Source: a virus (lineage: Duplodnaviria; Caudoviricetes). Taken from it: a stretch of 59,617 nucleotides of DNA. The position numbers and the translations under genes are program-made. Positions 984 through 41,923 of the stretch are shown here, piece by piece (the first letter of the stretch is position 1; every line of letters starts with the position of its first letter). The stretch spans positions 1 to 59,617 of IMG/VR virus record IMGVR_UViG_3300032285_001005; one strand, given 5' to 3'. The notes beneath the pieces are model-generated. The model was not told the DNA's origin, did not search any database, and was given only the letters and a program-made list of their open reading frames with translations.

Positions 984-2207
984 TTAAGCCGCTATCTTAG
1001 TCCAACTAGGGGACTGAGAAGGTGTGATTGGAGTATACCCCGGATCTTCGCTTGGCGCAATCGGTGTCCAATTTGACGAGGTGGCGGGAGTTATTACAGT
1101 CCATCCCGGATCTTCGGATGGAGTTATAGCATTCCAAGATGGGTTTTGACTAGGGGTAATCTCACCCCAAACCAGTACTTGTCCAGCATATCCATAGGCG
1201 GTGACACCGATTGGGTAAACTTGAGTGCTGACAAACACCGTCGTCGTGCCAACAGCGCCCGTGGCAGAGACGCCCGTGGCAAAGACGTTAGTTGTAATTA
1301 AGACCGTCGATGTTCCAACATCACCCGTGGCAGAGACGCCAGACAATGAAACATTGGCATCTGCCGTGATCGATGTCGTGCCAACATCACCCGTGGCAGA
1401 GACGCCTACAGCATAGGCAACAGCCGTTCCCGTGGCGGTTACTGAACCAACAGCCCCAGTTCCGGCTACTCCGGTGGTATTTACGTTAGCGGTCGCAGAA
1501 ATGCTGACAGAACCAACCTGCCCTGTAGAAGCAATTCCCGACGGAGATACGTTGGCCGTTCCGGTAACGCTTACGTTCCCCGTAAAGCCTGCTGCACTGA
1601 CGCTTCCGACAGAGACATTTGGGGAAAGTACGATAGAAACAGAGCCAACTGATCCAGTTGAGCTTACGCCCGTCGGTGAAACATTGGCCGTTCCGGTAAC
1701 AGAGACAGTACCTGTTGCTCCTGTGGCACTGACACCCGTGACAGAAACATTGGCCGTTCCGGTGACATTAACTGTTCCAACGGAACCTGTTGCATAAACG
1801 CCTGTGGCGGAGACGTTGGCCGAAGCATTGACAGTTACTGTGCCAAGCTGCCCAGTGGAGAATACTCCCACTGGATACACATTGGTCGTACCTATGACGG
1901 TAGGAGATCCAACGGAACCTGTTGCACTAAGCCCAGTAGGATAAGCGTTAGCACCCGCCGTTACTGTTACAGAACCAACGGACCCCGTAGCGACGGCAAC
2001 TGGGATTGAACCCGTACCAAAACCGCCTAAACCCCAGCCTTGGGATTTATTCCAGCCGCTAAAAGCGACTATTGCATCGACATTAAACGATACAGTTCCT
2101 ACGGAACCTGTAGCTACAGCCGCATCAACCGAACCCGTGCCAAAGGTGCCAATCCCCCAACCGGAGGATCGGTTCCACCCTTGGAAGGCTACGGTTGAAT
2201 CGACCAT
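984..2207 (-). CDS. Repetitive virion protein, probably tail fibre or beta-solenoid
   Basis: About 20-aa repeats GVSATGxVGxVxVxxxANV, then WxxIxP repeats. Confidence 0.7.
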   Translation of the reverse strand: MVDSTVAFQGWNRSSGWGIGTFGTGSVDAAVATGSVGTVSFNVDAIVAFSGWNKSQGWGLGGFGTGSIPVAVATGSVGSVTVTAGANAYPTGLSATGSVGSPTVIGTTNVYPVGVFSTGQLGTVTVNASANVSATGVYATGSVGTVNVTGTANVSVTGVSATGATGTVSVTGTANVSPTGVSSTGSVGSVSIVLSPNVSVGSVSAAGFTGNVSVTGTANVSPSGIASTGQVGSVSISATANVNTTGVAGTGAVGSVTATGTAVAYAVGVSATGDVGTTSITADANVSLSGVSATGDVGTSTVLITTNVFATGVSATGAVGTTTVFVSTQVYPIGVTAYGYAGQVLVWGEITPSQNPSWNAITPSEDPGWTVITPATSSNWTPIAPSEDPGYTPITPSQSPSWTKIAA

Positions 2208-2216
2208 TTAATCATA

Positions 2217-2675
2217 TCAAGCTATGCGGATAATGGCATTAGAAGCATCAGCCGTTGGGAAGATGATCGTGAAAGTACCAGCCGAAGCCGTCTTATCCGA
2301 ACCAAAATCCAACACGGCAACCGACTTATTTGACTGCGAGCTATTATAAATAAGTGCGCCACGAGCCGTAAACGATGCCGAAGACCATGAGGCATTCGAG
2401 AACGTGCAGATAGCCGTCGTACCCGTGGAAGAAGTCGTGGCACCAGTAAGGGCCAAACCACCTGCCGTGTACGCTGTACCTGCTGTATTGGTCGTTTCGT
2501 TGGTCGCCGTATAGGCCGTGGTCGTAGCATCAAGCGTTGCAGACGACGTATAGAGCGCAATCTTGTACGTGTCAGCCGTGGCAGAACCACGGACTGGAGG
2601 CGTACCGAGTGCTTGATAACCGTTCAAGAGGTCAAGCTTGAACGAAGTAGTCATGAAATTGCCTGTGAAACTCAC
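2217..2675 (-). CDS. Virion structural protein (tail-associated)
   Basis: YKIALYTSSATL...FTARGALIYN...VAVLDFGSDKT pattern; lies in the late operon. Confidence 0.7.
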   Translation of the reverse strand: MSFTGNFMTTSFKLDLLNGYQALGTPPVRGSATADTYKIALYTSSATLDATTTAYTATNETTNTAGTAYTAGGLALTGATTSSTGTTAICTFSNASWSSASFTARGALIYNSSQSNKSVAVLDFGSDKTASAGTFTIIFPTADASNAIIRIA

Positions 2676-20641: not shown

Positions 20642-20858
20642 GGCATCTCGGACCTGTGACATGGTAAATTTTAGGGCGTGGCAGGGCGCGAGGGGCTTAG
20701 TCTTATTTGACGGGGCGTGGCAGACCGGAAAGCGTGGCAGGGGCATTGTTAGGACCTATTTGACAGAACGTGACAGTTGCAGTTGACACGGGAACAAATC
20801 AGCTTTAAACGGGAATTGCACTACCCAATTAAACCCCTAGAAAGAGAAAGACAGAAAG

Positions 20859-22190
20859 ATGAAAATTGACGCAGCAGCAAGATCACGCTTACGGTCTGCC
20901 ATTACATCTCACACAGGTTGGCAAGACTACAAAAGAGCCACAGGTAAGGGCATCGCAGACTATCAGAAAGAAGACTACTTAGCAGCATGTCACGCCCTAC
21001 AGATTGACGCACAGGGCATCGTTGACGCAGCGCAGACAGAGGGGGCAGACATGAGAAAAGAACGGACAAAAGACCGTTTCGAGGTAAATGCTTTGTATGA
21101 CCGTTTCATTGCTGTTTTAGACCGTGTTGAAACAAAAGAACGGACAAAATGCGACGACATTTTTCGCAGCATCAGGCAGCAAGGCAGTGGCATGGCGACA
21201 GATGCACAATACAACGCTATTGACCGTATCGTGACACAGGCAGAAAGCACAGAACAGAAAGCACAGACATTTGACGCAGCCCCCGCAGCGCAACCCGTGG
21301 CAGCGCCCCCCGCAGCGTCAAATGCTCTCTATGACATAATGCGCGAGGCAGTAAGGGCAGACCTTGAACCATTAGTGAAGGGCATTGTCACAAGGGCGCT
21401 TGACGGGGTAGCAACGGTCAAGATTGAGTTGCAGCAGCAGGGCGCAACAGTAGGGGCGTCTGACGGTCATCAGCACCCTATGTTCACAACGCTTTGCAGG
21501 GCGCTTTCTGCACGGCAGGTTGACAGCTTCGCCCCTAACGTCTGGATAGCAGGCCCCGCAGGTAGTGGTAAAACACATGCTGCAAAGACGTTTGCAAGCG
21601 TGGCAAAGCTTGCTTTCTGGTACAATGGGGCGCTTTCAATGCCCCATGAGTTGCTAGGGTTTATTGATGCAGCAGGGCATTATCATAGAACGCCCTTCCG
21701 TGAAGCGTTTGAACATGGGGGCGTTTACCTATTTGACGAGGTTGACGGTAGTGACAACGCAGCCCTGTTAGCCCTTAACGCAGCCCTAGCTAATGGCAGA
21801 GCAAGCTTTCCAGACGCACAGATTGAACGACACAAAGACTGTCGGATTATTGCGACAGCTAACACATGGGGGCTAGGCGCTACAGCAGACTACGTAGGGC
21901 GCAGCAAAATTGACGCAGCGTTTTTGTCACGCTTTCCAGTACGTCTGCCATGGGATTATGACGCAGCCCTTGAGGTTGCTATCTCTGGTAATGCTGATTT
22001 TGCAAGACGAGTTCAGGCAGCACGTGAGCGTGCAAGGGCAGCAGGTCTTAAGGTCTTGATTGATCCCCGCGCAACCATGGCAGGGGCAGCGTTAATCGCA
22101 GCAGGTCTGACACATGACGAGGCAGCAAGCTTAACCTATCTTGCCAACCTGTCACCTGATCAGAAAAAGCTTGTCGAGGGGCGCGCATAA
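20859..22190 (+). CDS. MoxR/CobS-like AAA+ ATPase
   Basis: GPAGSGKT, YLFDEVD, IATANT...YVGRSKIDAAFLSRF. Confidence 0.88.
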   Translation: MKIDAAARSRLRSAITSHTGWQDYKRATGKGIADYQKEDYLAACHALQIDAQGIVDAAQTEGADMRKERTKDRFEVNALYDRFIAVLDRVETKERTKCDDIFRSIRQQGSGMATDAQYNAIDRIVTQAESTEQKAQTFDAAPAAQPVAAPPAASNALYDIMREAVRADLEPLVKGIVTRALDGVATVKIELQQQGATVGASDGHQHPMFTTLCRALSARQVDSFAPNVWIAGPAGSGKTHAAKTFASVAKLAFWYNGALSMPHELLGFIDAAGHYHRTPFREAFEHGGVYLFDEVDGSDNAALLALNAALANGRASFPDAQIERHKDCRIIATANTWGLGATADYVGRSKIDAAFLSRFPVRLPWDYDAALEVAISGNADFARRVQAARERARAAGLKVLIDPRATMAGAALIAAGLTHDEAASLTYLANLSPDQKKLVEGRA

Positions 22191-24662: not shown

Positions 24663-25131
24663 GTCAGGAGTATAGCCAATTCAAACTGGCGGCTCAACAG
24701 AGTTTTGCTATAAGAGCGGTTTTTCCCGTTTAGACAGAAAAGCAAACGTTTCCCGCACACGCACGTCTAGGCATAATATTGTACCCATGCAACTATGTCA
24801 TAGCTAATTGTGATAAAGGGAGTGTATCGACTCTGCTATGCACTGGAGGTAGACCCTTTATTGCAATCCCTTATTTATCAATGGGTTATCGATCCAATAA
24901 AGACTCTGAGCCAATAAAGGGCTTCCCAATGGCCGAAAAAATAATTTATGTCTAATTTGGCTGAAACGCCCTATACTCAATATATTCAATGACTTACAAT
25001 TTTAAGAGTCGATATAGAGTCGATATCTTTATATAATTCTCCTCCTTATAGCAAAGGTCCAAGGACCGAGGACCACCCTCCTTGACCATCATGTCATTTC
25101 TTGATAGTCCTTACACCGTTGACATAGCTAC
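24663..25131. other. AT-rich divergent intergenic region with IHF sites and repeats; candidate origin/control region
   Basis: IHF matches at 24876-24888 and 24984-24996; AGAGTCGATA at 25005 and 25016, inverted at 24825. Confidence 0.5.
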
Positions 25132-25541: not shown

Positions 25542-25570
25542 TTGACAGTTTTAATTGGCACTTATAACTT
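25542..25570 (+). promoter_or_regulatory. Sigma70-like early promoter TTGACA-N17-TAACTT
   Basis: Perfect -35, AT-rich UP element, near-duplicate at 32840. Confidence 0.7.
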
Positions 25571-25615
25571 TAAACCCATCAGCAAGAACGCTGATTCGAA
25601 GAAAGGAAGAAAGCG

Positions 25616-29601: not shown

Positions 29602-29717
29602 GAAAGTGGATCGTGCGCCACGAAGAAGTGGGCAAAGACATCTTAGCCTTGTGGGAGAACGACAACGGCGACAGGTGGTATGTGCAGGTCGTGATTAACG
29701 GGGAGGTGCAGTGGTGA
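29598..29717 (+). CDS. Hypothetical protein (39 aa, not in the ORF track)
   Basis: GGAGG RBS, ATGA coupling; MRKWIVRHEE... Confidence 0.6.
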   Translation: MRKWIVRHEEVGKDILALWENDNGDRWYVQVVINGEVQW

Positions 29718-30043
29718 TGGATAAAACAGAACAAATGGCTGCGGACATTGCTATGGCAATGAATGGAGGCGAATGGAAGGATGGCGATTGGTATGCCGAA
29801 GGACATCGTCAAGCATGGATAAAGGCGGTCAAACCATACTCTGATGAGATTGAACGGTTGCGGGGTTCATATGAAGACTGCATCAATGCTGTTGATACTA
29901 TAATCAATGACGGAATGACTGAGCCAGCAAAATTTGCCAAAATTCAACACAGTGGGTTTACCGCGTATAACTACATGATCGCAATGGCGGAAGACATAAA
30001 AGATGAAATTAAAAAACGGGCTGCACTGAAGGAGGGTGAGTGA
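29717..30043 (+). CDS. Hypothetical protein (DEIERLR...ALKEGE cassette)
   Basis: Coupled ORF. Confidence 0.7.
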   Translation: MDKTEQMAADIAMAMNGGEWKDGDWYAEGHRQAWIKAVKPYSDEIERLRGSYEDCINAVDTIINDGMTEPAKFAKIQHSGFTAYNYMIAMAEDIKDEIKKRAALKEGE

Positions 30044-30345
30044 TGCACGACGAAGTACAAATAACAAAGTTATTTTTGGAAAAGTTAAAGCCATATGATT
30101 TTAAGGCTACATTGGGTGTCTTTGAAAGTGGCGGTTATGTCCATGTCAACGTACAGGTGATTGGCGACAACAAAGAACACATAGACACATTCATCAATGA
30201 AACATATCAAGCCATCACGGATGGTGAAGTTATCTTTTCCAGAAGGCTTCCTGAATACGAAACAGTTAAAGATTTTGAAGCAAATGAATTAAAATATGGC
30301 GGTGGCTACAGGTTTTCCGTTAAAGCATTGAAGGAGGGTGAGTGA
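30040..30345 (+). CDS. Hypothetical protein (ALKEGE end)
   Basis: Coupled ORF. Confidence 0.7.
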   Translation: MMHDEVQITKLFLEKLKPYDFKATLGVFESGGYVHVNVQVIGDNKEHIDTFINETYQAITDGEVIFSRRLPEYETVKDFEANELKYGGGYRFSVKALKEGE

Positions 30346-30605
30346 TGGATATTGTAGAAAAATTGCGTTTGGTTGACTGTACGTTTTGGTATAAGCCACT
30401 TGGTCATGGGATTGATACAGACTTGGATGTTCCCGCTTATGAATTGGGAGCGTTGTCACATGAAGCCGCCGATGAGATTGAACGGTTGCGGGAAGCATTA
30501 GCCGATCTTGTGGCTGTCCAAAATGGGCCGCCATTAGTGACGTACACTGAGGCATGGGATGCAGCGATGGAAAAAGCGTATGCCGCACTGAAGGAGGGGG
30601 AGTGA
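30342..30605 (+). CDS. Hypothetical protein (MDIVEKLR...EAADEIERLR...ALKEGE)
   Basis: Coupled ORF. Confidence 0.72.
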   Translation: MMDIVEKLRLVDCTFWYKPLGHGIDTDLDVPAYELGALSHEAADEIERLREALADLVAVQNGPPLVTYTEAWDAAMEKAYAALKEGE

Positions 30606-32367: not shown

Positions 32368-32843
32368 TGACAATTTCCGTAAGCTTGACCGAACAGGATT
32401 TAATCATGTGCCGACTCATTGGTAACATGCGTTCGCTTGTGGCACGGAATAACTCTGTAGGTGACAAAAAAATGGGAAGTCAATCTGGAAGTCAGATTGA
32501 CGAAGACGGAGTGATTGGAGAATTTGCTTTCTGCAAACACTTCAATATATTTTTTGATATGGGACTGTCGCCACGAAGTGGAAGTTATGATTGTCTGTTA
32601 AGGGGTAAGCGGGTAGATGTGAAAACAACCCGATACAAATCAGGTCGGCTTCTTGCTACAACAAAAATTAATTACGACGTGGATATTTATGTGCTTGCTA
32701 TTTTGGAAGATAACACCGTGACGTTTGTCGGGTGGACTGAAAGAGAAATACTTACGTCCGCAGAAAACCTTAAAGACCTTGGCCGTGGTGAAGGATACAG
32801 CTTGGATCAAAGCGCCTTAAAATCTTTTTCAAAACAGGCTTGA
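32367..32843 (+). CDS. PD-(D/E)XK nuclease-like protein
   Basis: GVIGEFAF...YDCLL...VDVKTT...DIYVL. Confidence 0.6.
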   Translation: MTISVSLTEQDLIMCRLIGNMRSLVARNNSVGDKKMGSQSGSQIDEDGVIGEFAFCKHFNIFFDMGLSPRSGSYDCLLRGKRVDVKTTRYKSGRLLATTKINYDVDIYVLAILEDNTVTFVGWTEREILTSAENLKDLGRGEGYSLDQSALKSFSKQA

Positions 32844-32872
32844 CAGTTTGAATTGGCAGTTATAGATATAAT
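32840..32872 (+). promoter_or_regulatory. Promoter, near-duplicate of 25542
   Basis: TTGACAGTTTGAATTGGCAGTTATA versus TTGACAGTTTTAATTGGCACTTATA. Confidence 0.65.
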
Positions 32873-32902
32873 TTATCGCGTTATCGAAGAAAGGAAAGAG
32901 CG

Positions 32903-33238
32903 ATGAGAGCAATACTTATAGACCCAGTTGAAAAGTCCTTCACAGAAATCGAGTACAACGGCAACTGGAAGACAATAGCGCCTACCCTTGGATGCGAGTT
33001 GTTCGATGTTGTCTACACAGACTTTGGCGACGTGTACGTAGACGACGAAGGTCTCTTGAAACCTGACCAGAAATTTTTCCACATTCGCGGGATGTCTCAA
33101 CCATTCGCCGGACGTGGTCTTGTGTTTGGTCTTGTTGGGCCGGAAGGGGAAACAACCCCTGCCACTGTATCGATTGAGGATTTAGAGTTGAACGTTAAGT
33201 TCATGACACGTCAAAAAGTCATGGAGATGTTTGCTTAG
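32903..33238 (+). CDS. DUF3846-like protein
   Basis: MRAILIDP...VYVDDEGLL...PFAGRGLVFG. Confidence 0.65.
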   Translation: MRAILIDPVEKSFTEIEYNGNWKTIAPTLGCELFDVVYTDFGDVYVDDEGLLKPDQKFFHIRGMSQPFAGRGLVFGLVGPEGETTPATVSIEDLELNVKFMTRQKVMEMFA

Positions 33239-33239
33239 A

Positions 33240-33330
33240 GTTTCACGTCGCCTCCCGATGTGAACCGCGAGTTTTAGATTACCTCCCTTTTCTCGCGGCA
33301 GACTGGCCCCGCTTCGGCGGGGCCTTTTTT
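33240..33330 (+). ncRNA. Candidate three-hairpin sRNA with anti-SD (CCUCC) loops
   Basis: Stems 33242-33264 (loop CCTCC) and 33265-33298 (loop contains GATTACCTCCC), then a terminator. Confidence 0.6.
33305..33330 (+). terminator. Intrinsic terminator
   Basis: GGCCCCGC-TTCG-GCGGGGCC-T6. Confidence 0.92.
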
Positions 33331-35200
33331 ATAGGTCTAAGGGAGTTGTGGCCGCGCCCCACGACGGGCCAACTTCGGCGTCTACAATCGATGGTACGCG
33401 AAGCATAACACAGTTCTCCATGATCTCCTTTGCCCTACGTCCAGTTTCTTTGTTGGGCAATGACAGTGCGAGTTCGTCATGGATTTGGATCATGGGAAGA
33501 ATACCCTCGTCAGCTAGATCGACCAAAGCCTTCTTGGTCTGATCAGCCGCTGATCCTTGAATCAAGGAGTTCAAAGCTTTGTACGTGAACGCCCGACGGA
33601 TACCAGCGCCATACTCTGCAAAGGCTTCCTTGTGTGGCAGGGGCTTGTGAACGCCGAAGCTTGCGGGTTCCCATTTGTCATACCTGCACTTACGACCGAG
33701 CAAGGTTCTGATCGATCCATTCTTACCTGCGCGATCCGATGCAAACTCGCTGAGTTGTTTAACAAACGGAACTTCTTCGTGATACCTTGCAAAGAGTTCT
33801 TTGGCGACGGTAAGATCAAGACCAAGTTGTCCTGCCAGCTTCGTGACACCCATGCCATAGAACAGGCCAAGGTTAATTGTCTTCGCCTGCTTCCGTGGCA
33901 CACCTACAATGTCAGCGGCAATCTGGTGAAAGTCCGAGCGTGGGTCATCGCGGTACTGTGCCACGAATTCGTCTGCGCCTTTCATCTTGGCGACCGAAGC
34001 GTAGTGGACCACGATCCGAGGTTCTTGGGACGAGTAATCGAAAGCGCCCCACTGACAACCTTCTTCCGGTAAGAACAAACTCCGAATCATAGGACCGATG
34101 ATCTCGTCCCGTGATGGGATTTGCTGGAGGTTCGGGTTCGAGTAACTGAACCGTCCAGTGATCGTCCCGCCCTCGTCGCCCCGCAACTGGTGGATGTCAG
34201 CATGGATGCGGCCATTGTGTTGATGCTTCATGATCGTTTCGATGAACGTCGTGCGAGCCTTGTTGAGTTCCCGCGCCTTGACGATCATCTGCGGCAGAGC
34301 GTGTTCATGAGAGGACAGAAAATCCTTGGTGAAACTTGGCGCACCCGTGCCGCCCGTCTTTGGATATTCCAACCCAGCGGCGTCGAATACCTTTGCCACA
34401 GAAGCTGCGGCCCAGATGTCAGGGCTATGACCGTAATCATCCTTGATCTTTTTAATGAGTGCGCGTTCTTGTTTTTCAAGATCGGTCTGCGCTCTGTCGG
34501 CGGCATCCAGATCAACACGAACACCACGCGACCGCATGTCGATGATGGCCCGCAAGACACGCAGTTCGAGTTCGAAGATGTCTGTCACTTCTTCCTTGAC
34601 GAGCAATCCTTTGAAGAGGTCCCAAAGTTTCAAGGTCAGAGAAGCGTCTTGCTCGGCGTATGGTCCGACGTATTGCGGTGGAAGCTTGTACATCTCAGCT
34701 TTTGCATCCACGCCCCACTCGTTAGCGGCGACGGTCAGAAGCTTTTCGTCCTTACGATTTGCTAGATAGTCTTTGCCAAGATTGTTTAGCGAATAGCTAA
34801 AACGGTTCTCGTCCAGCAGAGGAGCGGCGACCATCGTGTCAATGATCCGGCCCTTGATCTCGACGCCCTCGGCGCGAAGCCAACCCACGTCATACATCGC
34901 ATTATGAAAAACATATGTCTTGCGGGGATCAGAACACAGGTCCTTCATCCAGCGCATGACACGCTTCGGGTCCATGTTGCCACCGTTCAAATGGCGGATA
35001 GGAAAGTACCAAGCTTCACCACGAACAGCGACTGCCACGCCAATGATGTGACCAGTCTTTGTAGGCCAGCCACTACCTTTTGTTTTTAGTTCGGGGTCGT
35101 AGGTTTCAAGATCGATTGCGATCTCTACTTCACCTGACAGGTCTGGCAGACTGTCTGGAGCGCACCATTCTGATTCCGTTCTCAACAGGGGTAACTGCAT
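33329..35200 (-). CDS. polA: DNA polymerase family A with 3'-5' exonuclease
   Basis: IDLET, FHNAMYD, TGRFSYSNPNLQQIP, DYSSQE, KTINLGLFYG, IQGSAAD, QIHDEL. Confidence 0.95.
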   Translation of the reverse strand: MQLPLLRTESEWCAPDSLPDLSGEVEIAIDLETYDPELKTKGSGWPTKTGHIIGVAVAVRGEAWYFPIRHLNGGNMDPKRVMRWMKDLCSDPRKTYVFHNAMYDVGWLRAEGVEIKGRIIDTMVAAPLLDENRFSYSLNNLGKDYLANRKDEKLLTVAANEWGVDAKAEMYKLPPQYVGPYAEQDASLTLKLWDLFKGLLVKEEVTDIFELELRVLRAIIDMRSRGVRVDLDAADRAQTDLEKQERALIKKIKDDYGHSPDIWAAASVAKVFDAAGLEYPKTGGTGAPSFTKDFLSSHEHALPQMIVKARELNKARTTFIETIMKHQHNGRIHADIHQLRGDEGGTITGRFSYSNPNLQQIPSRDEIIGPMIRSLFLPEEGCQWGAFDYSSQEPRIVVHYASVAKMKGADEFVAQYRDDPRSDFHQIAADIVGVPRKQAKTINLGLFYGMGVTKLAGQLGLDLTVAKELFARYHEEVPFVKQLSEFASDRAGKNGSIRTLLGRKCRYDKWEPASFGVHKPLPHKEAFAEYGAGIRRAFTYKALNSLIQGSAADQTKKALVDLADEGILPMIQIHDELALSLPNKETGRRAKEIMENCVMLRVPSIVDAEVGPSWGAATTPLDL

Positions 35201-40160: not shown

Positions 40161-40182
40161 TCTTTCTTCCTTTCCAACCCCG

Positions 40183-40450: not shown

Positions 40451-41923
40451 ATGCAACCTATTGTAACTAAATACGAATTCAAACTCCCTCCCTACGAACA
40501 CCAGAACATCGCTCTTAAGAAAAGTTGGAACAAAGAAGAGTTCGCCTTGTTCTGTGAGATGGGGACGGGCAAGTCCAAAATGCTCATCGATAACATCGGT
40601 ATCCTGTTCGAGCGGGACGAAATAAAAGCTGCGCTAATTGTCGCACCTAAAGGCGTGTACAAAAATTGGCAGAGGTCCGAGTTGCCTCGTCATATGCCAG
40701 ATCGCATCCTTGAGAAGACCGATGTCGTCGCATGGTCTCCAGCAACGTCTATTAAGAATAAGAAAGAACTGGAACTATCTCTCAAGAAGGATGGTCGCTA
40801 CAAAATCCTTGTCATGAACATCGAAGCGTTCTCCACAGCAAAGGGAACCGAGTTCGCTTCAAAGTTTTGTGATGCCCATGAATGTCTAATGGCCGTGGAC
40901 GAAAGCACGACGATCAAGAACCGTTCTGCACAGCGCACTAAGAGCGTAATCAAGGTCGGTCAGAAAGCAAAGTACCGCCGTATCATGACGGGATCGCCTG
41001 TCACCAAATCGCCTATGGATTTGTATTCACAGTGTGCGTTCCTTGATCCAAAGAAGTTGGGCTACACATCTTTCTTCTCGTTCCAAGGACGGTATGCCAA
41101 GACCATCCGTCGCACTATGGGAAGCCACAGCTTCAACCAAGTCGTCGGTTATCAGCATCTGGATGAACTGGCGACAAAGCTAGATGACTTCAGTTATCGG
41201 GTCTTGAAGAAGGATTGCCTTGATCTTCCTGAAAAGGTCTACATCAAGCGCGTCGTCGAGATGACTGACAAGCAAGCTGTGTCCTATAATTTTATGAAGA
41301 AGCTGGCCCTGACCAAAATTCAGGACGAGGTTGGCGACATCACGACTGTGTCCGCAGCAAACGTCTTGACACAGATTCTCCGGCTTCAGCAAATCTGCTC
41401 AGGCTCTGTCAAGAACGACGACGGCGAGATCGTCGATCTACCTACCAATAAATTAGATGAATTGTTGGCGGTCATCGATGAGACAGAAGGCAAGATCATC
41501 ATCTGGGCCGTCTTTGTCAGCGATCTGCTCAAAATAACGGATATGCTTAACACGACGTTTGGGGCCGGATCAGCGGCGTCTTTCTACGGTGACACAAAGC
41601 CGGAAGAGCGGCAGGACATCGTCGAGAAGTTCCAAGATCCCAACAACAAGCTTCGCTTCTTTGTTGGAAACCCCCGCGTCGGCGGGATGGGTCTGACGCT
41701 TACGGAGGCTAAGACGGTCATCTATTATTCCAACGTCTACGATTTGGAAGTCCGGCTACAGTCCGAGGACAGAGCGCATCGTATCGGCCAAAAGAATAAC
41801 GTGACTTACATTGATCTCGTCTGTGAGAACACTGTGGAAGAGAAAATCCTACAGGCTCTTAGGGACAAGATCGACGTAGCCACGTTAATCATGAAAGACG
41901 GACATAAAGATTGGCTTATCTGA
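40451..41923 (+). CDS. SNF2-family helicase
   Basis: EMGTGKS, VDES, MTGSP, GGMGLTL, QSEDRAHRIGQ. Confidence 0.93.
   Translation: MQPIVTKYEFKLPPYEHQNIALKKSWNKEEFALFCEMGTGKSKMLIDNIGILFERDEIKAALIVAPKGVYKNWQRSELPRHMPDRILEKTDVVAWSPATSIKNKKELELSLKKDGRYKILVMNIEAFSTAKGTEFASKFCDAHECLMAVDESTTIKNRSAQRTKSVIKVGQKAKYRRIMTGSPVTKSPMDLYSQCAFLDPKKLGYTSFFSFQGRYAKTIRRTMGSHSFNQVVGYQHLDELATKLDDFSYRVLKKDCLDLPEKVYIKRVVEMTDKQAVSYNFMKKLALTKIQDEVGDITTVSAANVLTQILRLQQICSGSVKNDDGEIVDLPTNKLDELLAVIDETEGKIIIWAVFVSDLLKITDMLNTTFGAGSAASFYGDTKPEERQDIVEKFQDPNNKLRFFVGNPRVGGMGLTLTEAKTVIYYSNVYDLEVRLQSEDRAHRIGQKNNVTYIDLVCENTVEEKILQALRDKIDVATLIMKDGHKDWLI

Follow-up and report, generated by a model that had tools for sequence, protein, structure and literature searches.

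Which part of the hairpin series that directly follows a small DUF3846 gene has been kept among related phages, and what could it do? The stretch analysed here (the window) is a whole record, a single 59,617-base contig of an uncultured aquatic tailed phage that we read as complete. It encodes DNA polymerase A, a UvrD-type helicase and many small open reading frames (ORFs), and no tRNA genes were found in it. By polymerase protein, the closest cultured phages are 023Pt_psg01 (55%), DSL-LC04 (54%) and the pelagiphages HTVC027P (52%) and HTVC023P (51%), and the hosts of these nearest cultured phages are Gammaproteobacteria, Pelagibacter or unrecorded. The sequencing runs that hold parts of the window sequence are labelled metagenome, aquatic or freshwater; none of the eight runs with matches to the stretch is on record as RNA.

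The DUF3846 gene (32903–33238, +) encodes a protein of 111 aa that matches PF12957 (E = 4.7e-08; 33.6 bits against a cutoff of 27.5) and phrog_25534, a group of unknown function. Its stop codon, TAG, lies at 33236–33238, and it is the sole ORF in a short transcription unit. The protein has no solved relative in the PDB (best E-value 0.57), a search of cultured phages gave no match, and the Atlas returned DUF3846 clusters only. A profile search of genome contigs recovered five distant matches with 34–42% identity in unrelated taxa.

Upstream of the gene lies a promoter-like cassette (32840–32872, +) with a −35 box TTGACA at 32840–32845 and a TAGATA/TATAAT-like region at 32863–32872. The initial annotation had assigned the gene its own promoter at 32840, and this holds in part: the TTGACA box is perfect and recurs, together with a purine-rich leader, upstream of the DUF3846 gene in 15/15 relatives from IMG/VR, but the −10 box (TAGATA, 17 nt further on) is imperfect, and a strict promoter consensus scan did not list the cassette. 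The 5′ leader (32873–32902, +) contains the purine tract GAAGAAAGGAAAGAG at 32886–32900, a weak Shine–Dalgarno (SD) sequence, and its core GAAGAAAGGA is preserved among the relatives. Because this promoter–leader cassette precedes the gene both here and in all 15 relatives, we take the DUF3846 unit to be a short, separately promoted transcript with a predicted length of ~0.46 kb.

Three copies of the promoter cassette (TTGACA plus CAGTTTGAATTGGC) are present in the window, at 24675–24688 (−), 25546–25559 (+) and 32844–32857 (+). The copies at 25546 and 32844 are followed by near-identical purine-rich leaders ending in GCGATG, and the copy at 24675 comprises the promoter part. Judged by its sequence, the three-copy cassette looks like a set of early promoters.

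The 3′ element of the unit (33242–33330, +) begins directly after the DUF3846 stop codon. Hairpin 1 (33242–33264, +) has a stem of 9 bp, including one G–U pair, and a 5-nt loop that consists of CCUCC (33251–33255). Hairpin 2 (33265–33298, +) has 7 perfect base pairs and a 20-nt loop containing CCUCCC at 33282–33287. An intrinsic terminator follows (33305–33330, +), with eight G–C pairs and a UUCG loop in its stem-loop (33305–33324) and six U at 33325–33330. These three consecutive hairpins had been described from the letters of the sequence, and RNAfold reproduced the same helices at −42.4 kcal/mol. None of 200 dinucleotide shuffles (−27.4 ± 3.4) folded as well, which corresponds to z = −4.49. 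The probability of being unpaired was 1.00 for the motif in hairpin 1 and 0.89 for that in hairpin 2. When contigs from four sequencing runs were compared, DNA contigs of two of them (runs X3 and X5) covered the element without gaps.

Fold energy cannot decide the strand, since the complementary strand folds almost equally well (−42.2, z = −4.08). We assigned the element to the plus strand because a U-tract is present on this strand only and because the G–U pair fits it, as the same position would be an A–C mismatch on the minus strand. The minus-strand stability could nevertheless point to a function of the opposite strand, whose loops would read GGGAGGAA and could act as an SD sequence for a small ORF or as a GGA-type protein site in convergent transcripts, e.g., that of polA. 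The DNA polymerase A gene (33329–35200, −; PF00476, E = 1.2e-57), which belongs to the context outside the element, does converge on it: its stop codon (33329–33331, −) overlaps the terminator U-tract, and a similar overlap is visible by eye in several relatives. We consider such a function highly improbable, given the lack of a minus-strand U-tract and the mismatches that replace the plus-strand G–U pairs. Just one of the window's two GGGAGG sequences has a start codon after it, which opens an ORF of 3 codons, and L087 shows no such start codon, these being the two cases checked.

Gene order in two relatives argues in the same direction. In L082, the closest relative, the next gene is co-directional with the DUF3846 unit; this ORF, at 1938–2516 (+) between the terminator and polA, matches NUMOD3 (E = 2.9e-18) and is weakly GIY-YIG-like. 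An L082-type variant with the same insertion, 641 letters long, after the terminator is represented by a contig of run X2. The inserted ORF is probably a homing endonuclease, and in both sequences the module stays with the DUF3846 unit despite this same-strand insertion before the polymerase. In L085, an extra gene is inserted after DUF3846, and the hairpin–terminator module is still found at the end of the plus-strand unit, after the inserted gene.

As a separate observation on this arrangement, the relatives L083, L086 and L091 show, by eye, a convergent minus-strand stop codon (of polA or another gene) in or near the terminator U-tract. In these relatives and in the window, two converging units are thus packed on one terminator of unidirectional appearance.

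Conservation of the CCUCC loops in related phages had been set beforehand as a test of the element. Relatives were gathered from IMG/VR via polymerase and DUF3846 profile searches, and further loci from metagenome contigs. An unpaired CCUCC just before the terminator was present in 15/15 IMG/VR relatives with at least 61% DUF3846 identity (L082–L096). From the metagenome contigs, the first 30 of 80 loci were examined; 20 reached 61% identity or more, and 17 of these could be used, L186 and L201 being cut off and L177 being an L085-type record. All 17 carried the module. In all, 18 different sequences of the element were obtained, which contain 22 copies of CCUCC and give the consensus UUCCUCCC; all variants derive from one ancestor, so the 18 sequences do not count as 18 independent events.

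The CCUCC core is invariant across the 22 copies. The preceding base is U in 17 copies, A in 3 and G in 2, the base two positions before the core is U in 16/22, and the following base is C in 18 copies and G in 4. Two copies of the motif are present in 4/18 elements, as is also known from SD-targeting sRNAs. The setting of the motif varies widely: it occupies loops of 5–20 nt, the loop of the terminator itself (three variants) or a linker (three variants). The stems around it are unrelated among the variants and comprise at least eight different helices plus the linker case. MAFFT could not bring the variant stems into common columns, and structure was therefore judged sequence by sequence, without a common covariance model. 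In 15/18 elements the best motif copy had a probability of being unpaired of at least 0.84, with lower values of 0.52–0.66 in L085, L091 and L095. A G+C-rich hairpin followed by a U-tract, the hallmark of an intrinsic terminator, was found in the window and in 18/18 elements.

In the beforehand test, then, the motif proved to be kept while the stems were replaced: across the 22 copies, five to eight bases of the motif show no change or almost none, and the rest of the loops and the stems have diverged past alignment. Because the stems are unrelated and cannot be aligned while CCUCC is invariant, it is the motif rather than the hairpin that is kept, in a predicted unpaired state and linked to the end of the unit.

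The module is restricted to one clade. Among the IMG/VR loci with at most 54% DUF3846 identity (65, of which 63 were usable), CCTCC was found within 60 nt of the stop codon in 0/63; two such loci carried it at +97, apparently within a convergent coding region. The metagenome loci with at most 51% identity had the module in 0/10 cases. At terminator-like sites, CCTCC occurred within 45 nt upstream in 0/17 sites of loci outside the clade and in 17/25 sites of clade loci, being absent from the other 8. In the nearly complete relatives G001 and G002, no CCTCC-loop hairpin besides the element has a T-run after it.

Loci L097–L100 and L193–L199, with ~50% identity, show a different arrangement after the DUF3846 stop codon, where a long near-perfect hairpin (~17–19 bp, loop UCAGC) replaces the CCUCC module. 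After this hairpin come a purine-rich leader and the next gene.

These controls bear on the view that the hairpins have no sequence-specific role and serve just to shield the 3′ end or to aid termination, CCUCC being present by descent or as a by-product. The confinement of all carriers to one clade and the constant adjacency of the module to a terminator agree with such a view, but near-invariance of five to eight motif bases amid stems and remaining loop bases that cannot be aligned does not, and neither do the other terminators of the same phages, which lack the motif (the 8/25 clade sites; G001 and G002). We therefore regard it as quite improbable.

Base composition of the window gives a further frame for the motif. 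Both strands together contain nine CCTCCC, where 23 ± 5 would be expected, and a 40-nt stretch of the element accounts for two of them. CCTCC and GGAGG together are depleted (62 against ~113 in shuffles). Hairpins with CCTCC in the loop are not enriched by count (8 against 12.3 ± 3.5 in shuffles). Among these eight, the two of the element have the longest stem (9 bp) and one of two joint third-longest stems (7 bp), and they adjoin each other in front of a terminator. The plus strand of the window is asymmetric, with 15 CCTCC and 47 GGAGG. The relative G002 shows no CCTCC depletion (58 and 62).

Loop 2 of the window had been likened to the 3′ end of 16S rRNA, which raises the idea of a decoy, an RNA whose likeness to the anti-SD tail would draw away a factor or nuclease acting on that tail. 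In the 16S tail, the CCUCC core is preceded by A and followed by U. Window loop 2 does resemble this tail beyond the core, but the resemblance turned out to be peculiar to the window. Among the 22 copies, the core is preceded by U instead of A in 17 and by A in 3, and it is followed by C or G instead of U in 22/22, so that U after the core has a count of 0/22. Mimicry of the 16S 3′ tail is not supported by these counts, no likeness beyond the CCUCC core being conserved among the 22 copies, and we find a decoy scarcely credible. The core itself is common to 16S (PMC6288834).

Pairing in cis was considered as well. In Staphylococcus aureus, the icaR mRNA is regulated by pairing between its 3′UTR and 5′UTR, and the CCUCC loop could likewise fold onto the SD sequence of its own mRNA, limiting translation or triggering decay. 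The conserved leader does offer an AGGAA with which the UUCCU half of the consensus can pair. However, the duplex between the loop and its own leader was no better than that with random 47-nt windows of the locus (background share 0.27–0.90; 13 probes, 11/18 elements), which does not support this pairing. Moreover, the leader SD varies (AGGAA, AGGAG, AGGUAAG), and the loop does not change to match it. An icaR-type mechanism thus appears very unlikely.

Comparison with known RNA families places the element near, and outside, described groups. Across the whole window, Rfam at gathering scores returned only a CyVA-1 RNA (RF02965; 40251–40328, +; 43.5 bits against a gathering score of 41.4), outside the element. 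The CyVA-1 site lies between divergent genes, ahead of the one for an SNF2-type helicase (40451–41923). A search of 33100–33450 at E ≤ 10 gave 13 matches, and a search of ten relatives at E ≤ 5 gave 15, none of them at gathering score. The best Rfam match of the element was anti-hemB (RF02837), with 32.1 bits in the window, 23.7 in L094 and 20.4 in L083 against a gathering score of 49.5. The Betaproteobacteria toxic sRNA family (RF02278) scored 25.2 bits in L082 and 15.7 in the window against 50. Membership in either family was rejected, as the scores lie below the gathering scores in the window and in the relatives.

The initial annotation had named alpha-r14, alpha-r15 and cuckoo as possible families, and these are absent from the 13 window matches (E ≤ 10) and the 15 matches of the relatives. 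It had been closer to the mark with the general kind of RNA it invoked, AbcR/cuckoo-like molecules that display anti-RBS (ribosome binding site) loops: the nearest Rfam models, although sub-threshold, are terminator-bearing sRNAs with CU-rich anti-RBS loops. AbcR (alpha-r15), alpha-r14 and cuckoo/CcsR also carry C-rich anti-SD motifs in loops; AbcR1 is the subject of PMC4152367.

Anti-hemB and the element are alike in having two hairpins, the first with CCUCCC in its loop, ahead of a terminator, the Rfam consensus loop of anti-hemB being UCuCCUCCCUG. In contrast, most of the phage relatives lack a second hairpin, and the genomic context is not the same. Anti-hemB was proposed as a non-coding RNA with a terminator at its end (Weinberg 2007). 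The RF02278 family includes the Burkholderia cenocepacia double-hairpin sRNAs ncS03, ncS05, ncS27 and ncS62. As described in PMC5688073, they resemble the phage element in having a length of 57–95 nt, a CU-rich unpaired anti-RBS stretch and a terminator hairpin with a U-tail, and some members, like some phage elements, carry two CU-rich regions. The same paper reports predicted targets of these sRNAs to be centred on start regions, growth to be attenuated in cells that overexpress ncS27, and ncS04 (= anti-hemB) to bind Hfq. Members of RF02278 are toxic if cloned in E. coli, and their native function is unknown (PMC4603805). In keeping with this working likeness, CCUCC was located upstream of or inside the terminator in 18/18 phage elements. 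The phage element differs in sitting within an mRNA 3′UTR rather than in a free-standing gene.

A parallel in origin is offered by the enterobacterial sRNAs CpxQ, DapZ and SroC, which derive from 3′UTRs. Like them, the module comes from an mRNA end and uses the mRNA's own terminator; the phage element differs in having no conserved internal promoter. In an alignment of 12 variants, no conserved promoter was found within the last 100 nt of the DUF3846 gene, where conservation follows codon positions, so a separate sRNA would need to be processed from the mRNA. A type I 3′UTR sRNA with its own promoter is not supported, since the last 100 nt of the 12 variants showed codon-like conservation only. 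The literature, searched mostly at the abstract level, yielded prophage and phage sRNAs of other types and no description of such an element. C-rich anti-SD regulatory RNAs are a kind known in bacteria; the phage 3′UTR family, found in a clade of uncultured freshwater phages, is absent from Rfam.

In the reading that we prefer, at a probability of about 0.5, the module would be an anti-SD RNA that pairs in trans, either after processing to a 3′ fragment or in the form of the full ~0.46 kb mRNA. This reading is favoured because an unpaired motif complementary to ribosome binding sites is kept beside a U-tailed terminator whatever helix surrounds it, which is the anatomy of SD-occluding sRNAs. 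The unit would run from the promoter-like cassette via the purine-rich leader and the DUF3846 gene to the RNA module, in which one or two hairpins, or a linker, would hold UUCCUCCC single-stranded ahead of the intrinsic terminator with its U-tail. The exposed C-rich motif would serve as a seed for purine-rich, GGAGG-type ribosome binding sites of other mRNAs, ideally GGGAGGAA, and seed pairing would block 30S binding at the target site. The preferred site would accordingly be GGGAGGAA-like and unlike the ideal partner of 16S. From these features we infer transcription, stability, pairing in trans and a partner, which may be a host or a phage mRNA.

Pairing may be carried out by a stable 3′ fragment of 57–95 nt, released by cleavage, or by the ~0.46 kb transcript in its entirety. 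Against the proposal, the hairpin of the element starts 2–6 nt past the stop codon, and ribosomes finishing translation there would unfold it on an intact mRNA.

The seed is conserved and accessible across the 18 elements, and the search for targets covered phage genomes (the window, G001 and G002). A sliding duplex scan of the window mRNAs found no complementarity beyond the 5–6 nt core. The best-pairing initiation regions of the window had no similarly strong-pairing homologues in G001 or G002, and no conserved phage target emerged.

The lack of a conserved RNA target within the phage is one of the points that favour a protein-binding or sponge element, in which the exposed pyrimidine motif would be a site for a host or phage RNA-binding protein that the module titrates or recruits. 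Such a site could equally be conserved, exposed and at times duplicated. Its presentation in a 5-nt loop, a 20-nt loop, a terminator loop or a linker is, however, highly varied and better fits a pairing seed than a shaped protein site. Nor did a candidate protein emerge, DUF3846 itself being without a PDB relative at the E-value given above. Protein binding is, in our estimation, a tentative and rather unlikely alternative to the trans-pairing anti-SD RNA.

A more far-reaching version of anti-SD pairing is a general anti-SD RNA made by the phage. From a strong early promoter, a stable 3′ fragment would accumulate and coat GGAGG-type ribosome binding sites, shutting down host translation or timing a switch between classes of phage genes, while the purine-rich weak-SD early leaders of the phage itself would be spared. 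The A-rich leader motifs cited by the initial annotation are where it had placed them, GAAAGGAAGAAAG at 25601 (+) and 40162–40174 (−) and AGAAAGAGAAAG at 20839, 22211 and 40432 (+). The exact 12-mer AGAAAGAGAAAG occurs in three copies in the window against 0.34 expected. Two of these copies stand directly upstream of start codons, at 20859 and 40451.

The proposed sparing of such leaders fared less well. The A-rich leaders themselves contain AGGAA, the complement of the UUCCU half of the consensus, and ORFs led by GGAGG are commoner in G001 (12) and G002 (24) than in the window (9), counting sites with a start codon 3–13 nt further on and an ORF of at least 40 aa, with two overlapping sites each in G001 and G002. 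With these relatives ahead of the window in this count, the comparison gave no sign that strong SDs are avoided across the clade. We consider the general form doubtful and, on balance, unlikely.

Strong SDs in the window have a distribution of their own. Four consecutive small genes, at 29702, 30031, 30333 and 30593 (+), each stand behind a strong GGAGG, and three of them share the near-identical junction CTGAAGGAGGG(T/G)GAGTGATG. The group at 29702–30593 is a tandem family that holds the sole strong SDs of the rightward operon. Pfam gave no match for its ORF 30040–30342.

To our knowledge, hardly any work has addressed regulatory RNAs in lytic phages from the environment. The comparative data alone mark 5–8 nt, the complement of a ribosome binding site, as a selected part of a phage 3′UTR in at least 18 variants. 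Even if the module acts only in cis, it would be a clean new RNA motif absent from Rfam. If it blocks ribosome binding sites, it would be a compact and portable means for a phage to re-programme translation, and would give the CU-rich double-hairpin sRNAs of bacteria an equivalent among phages. A general anti-SD RNA, if true, would amount to an RNA device for the takeover of host translation that is conserved in a clade of freshwater phages.
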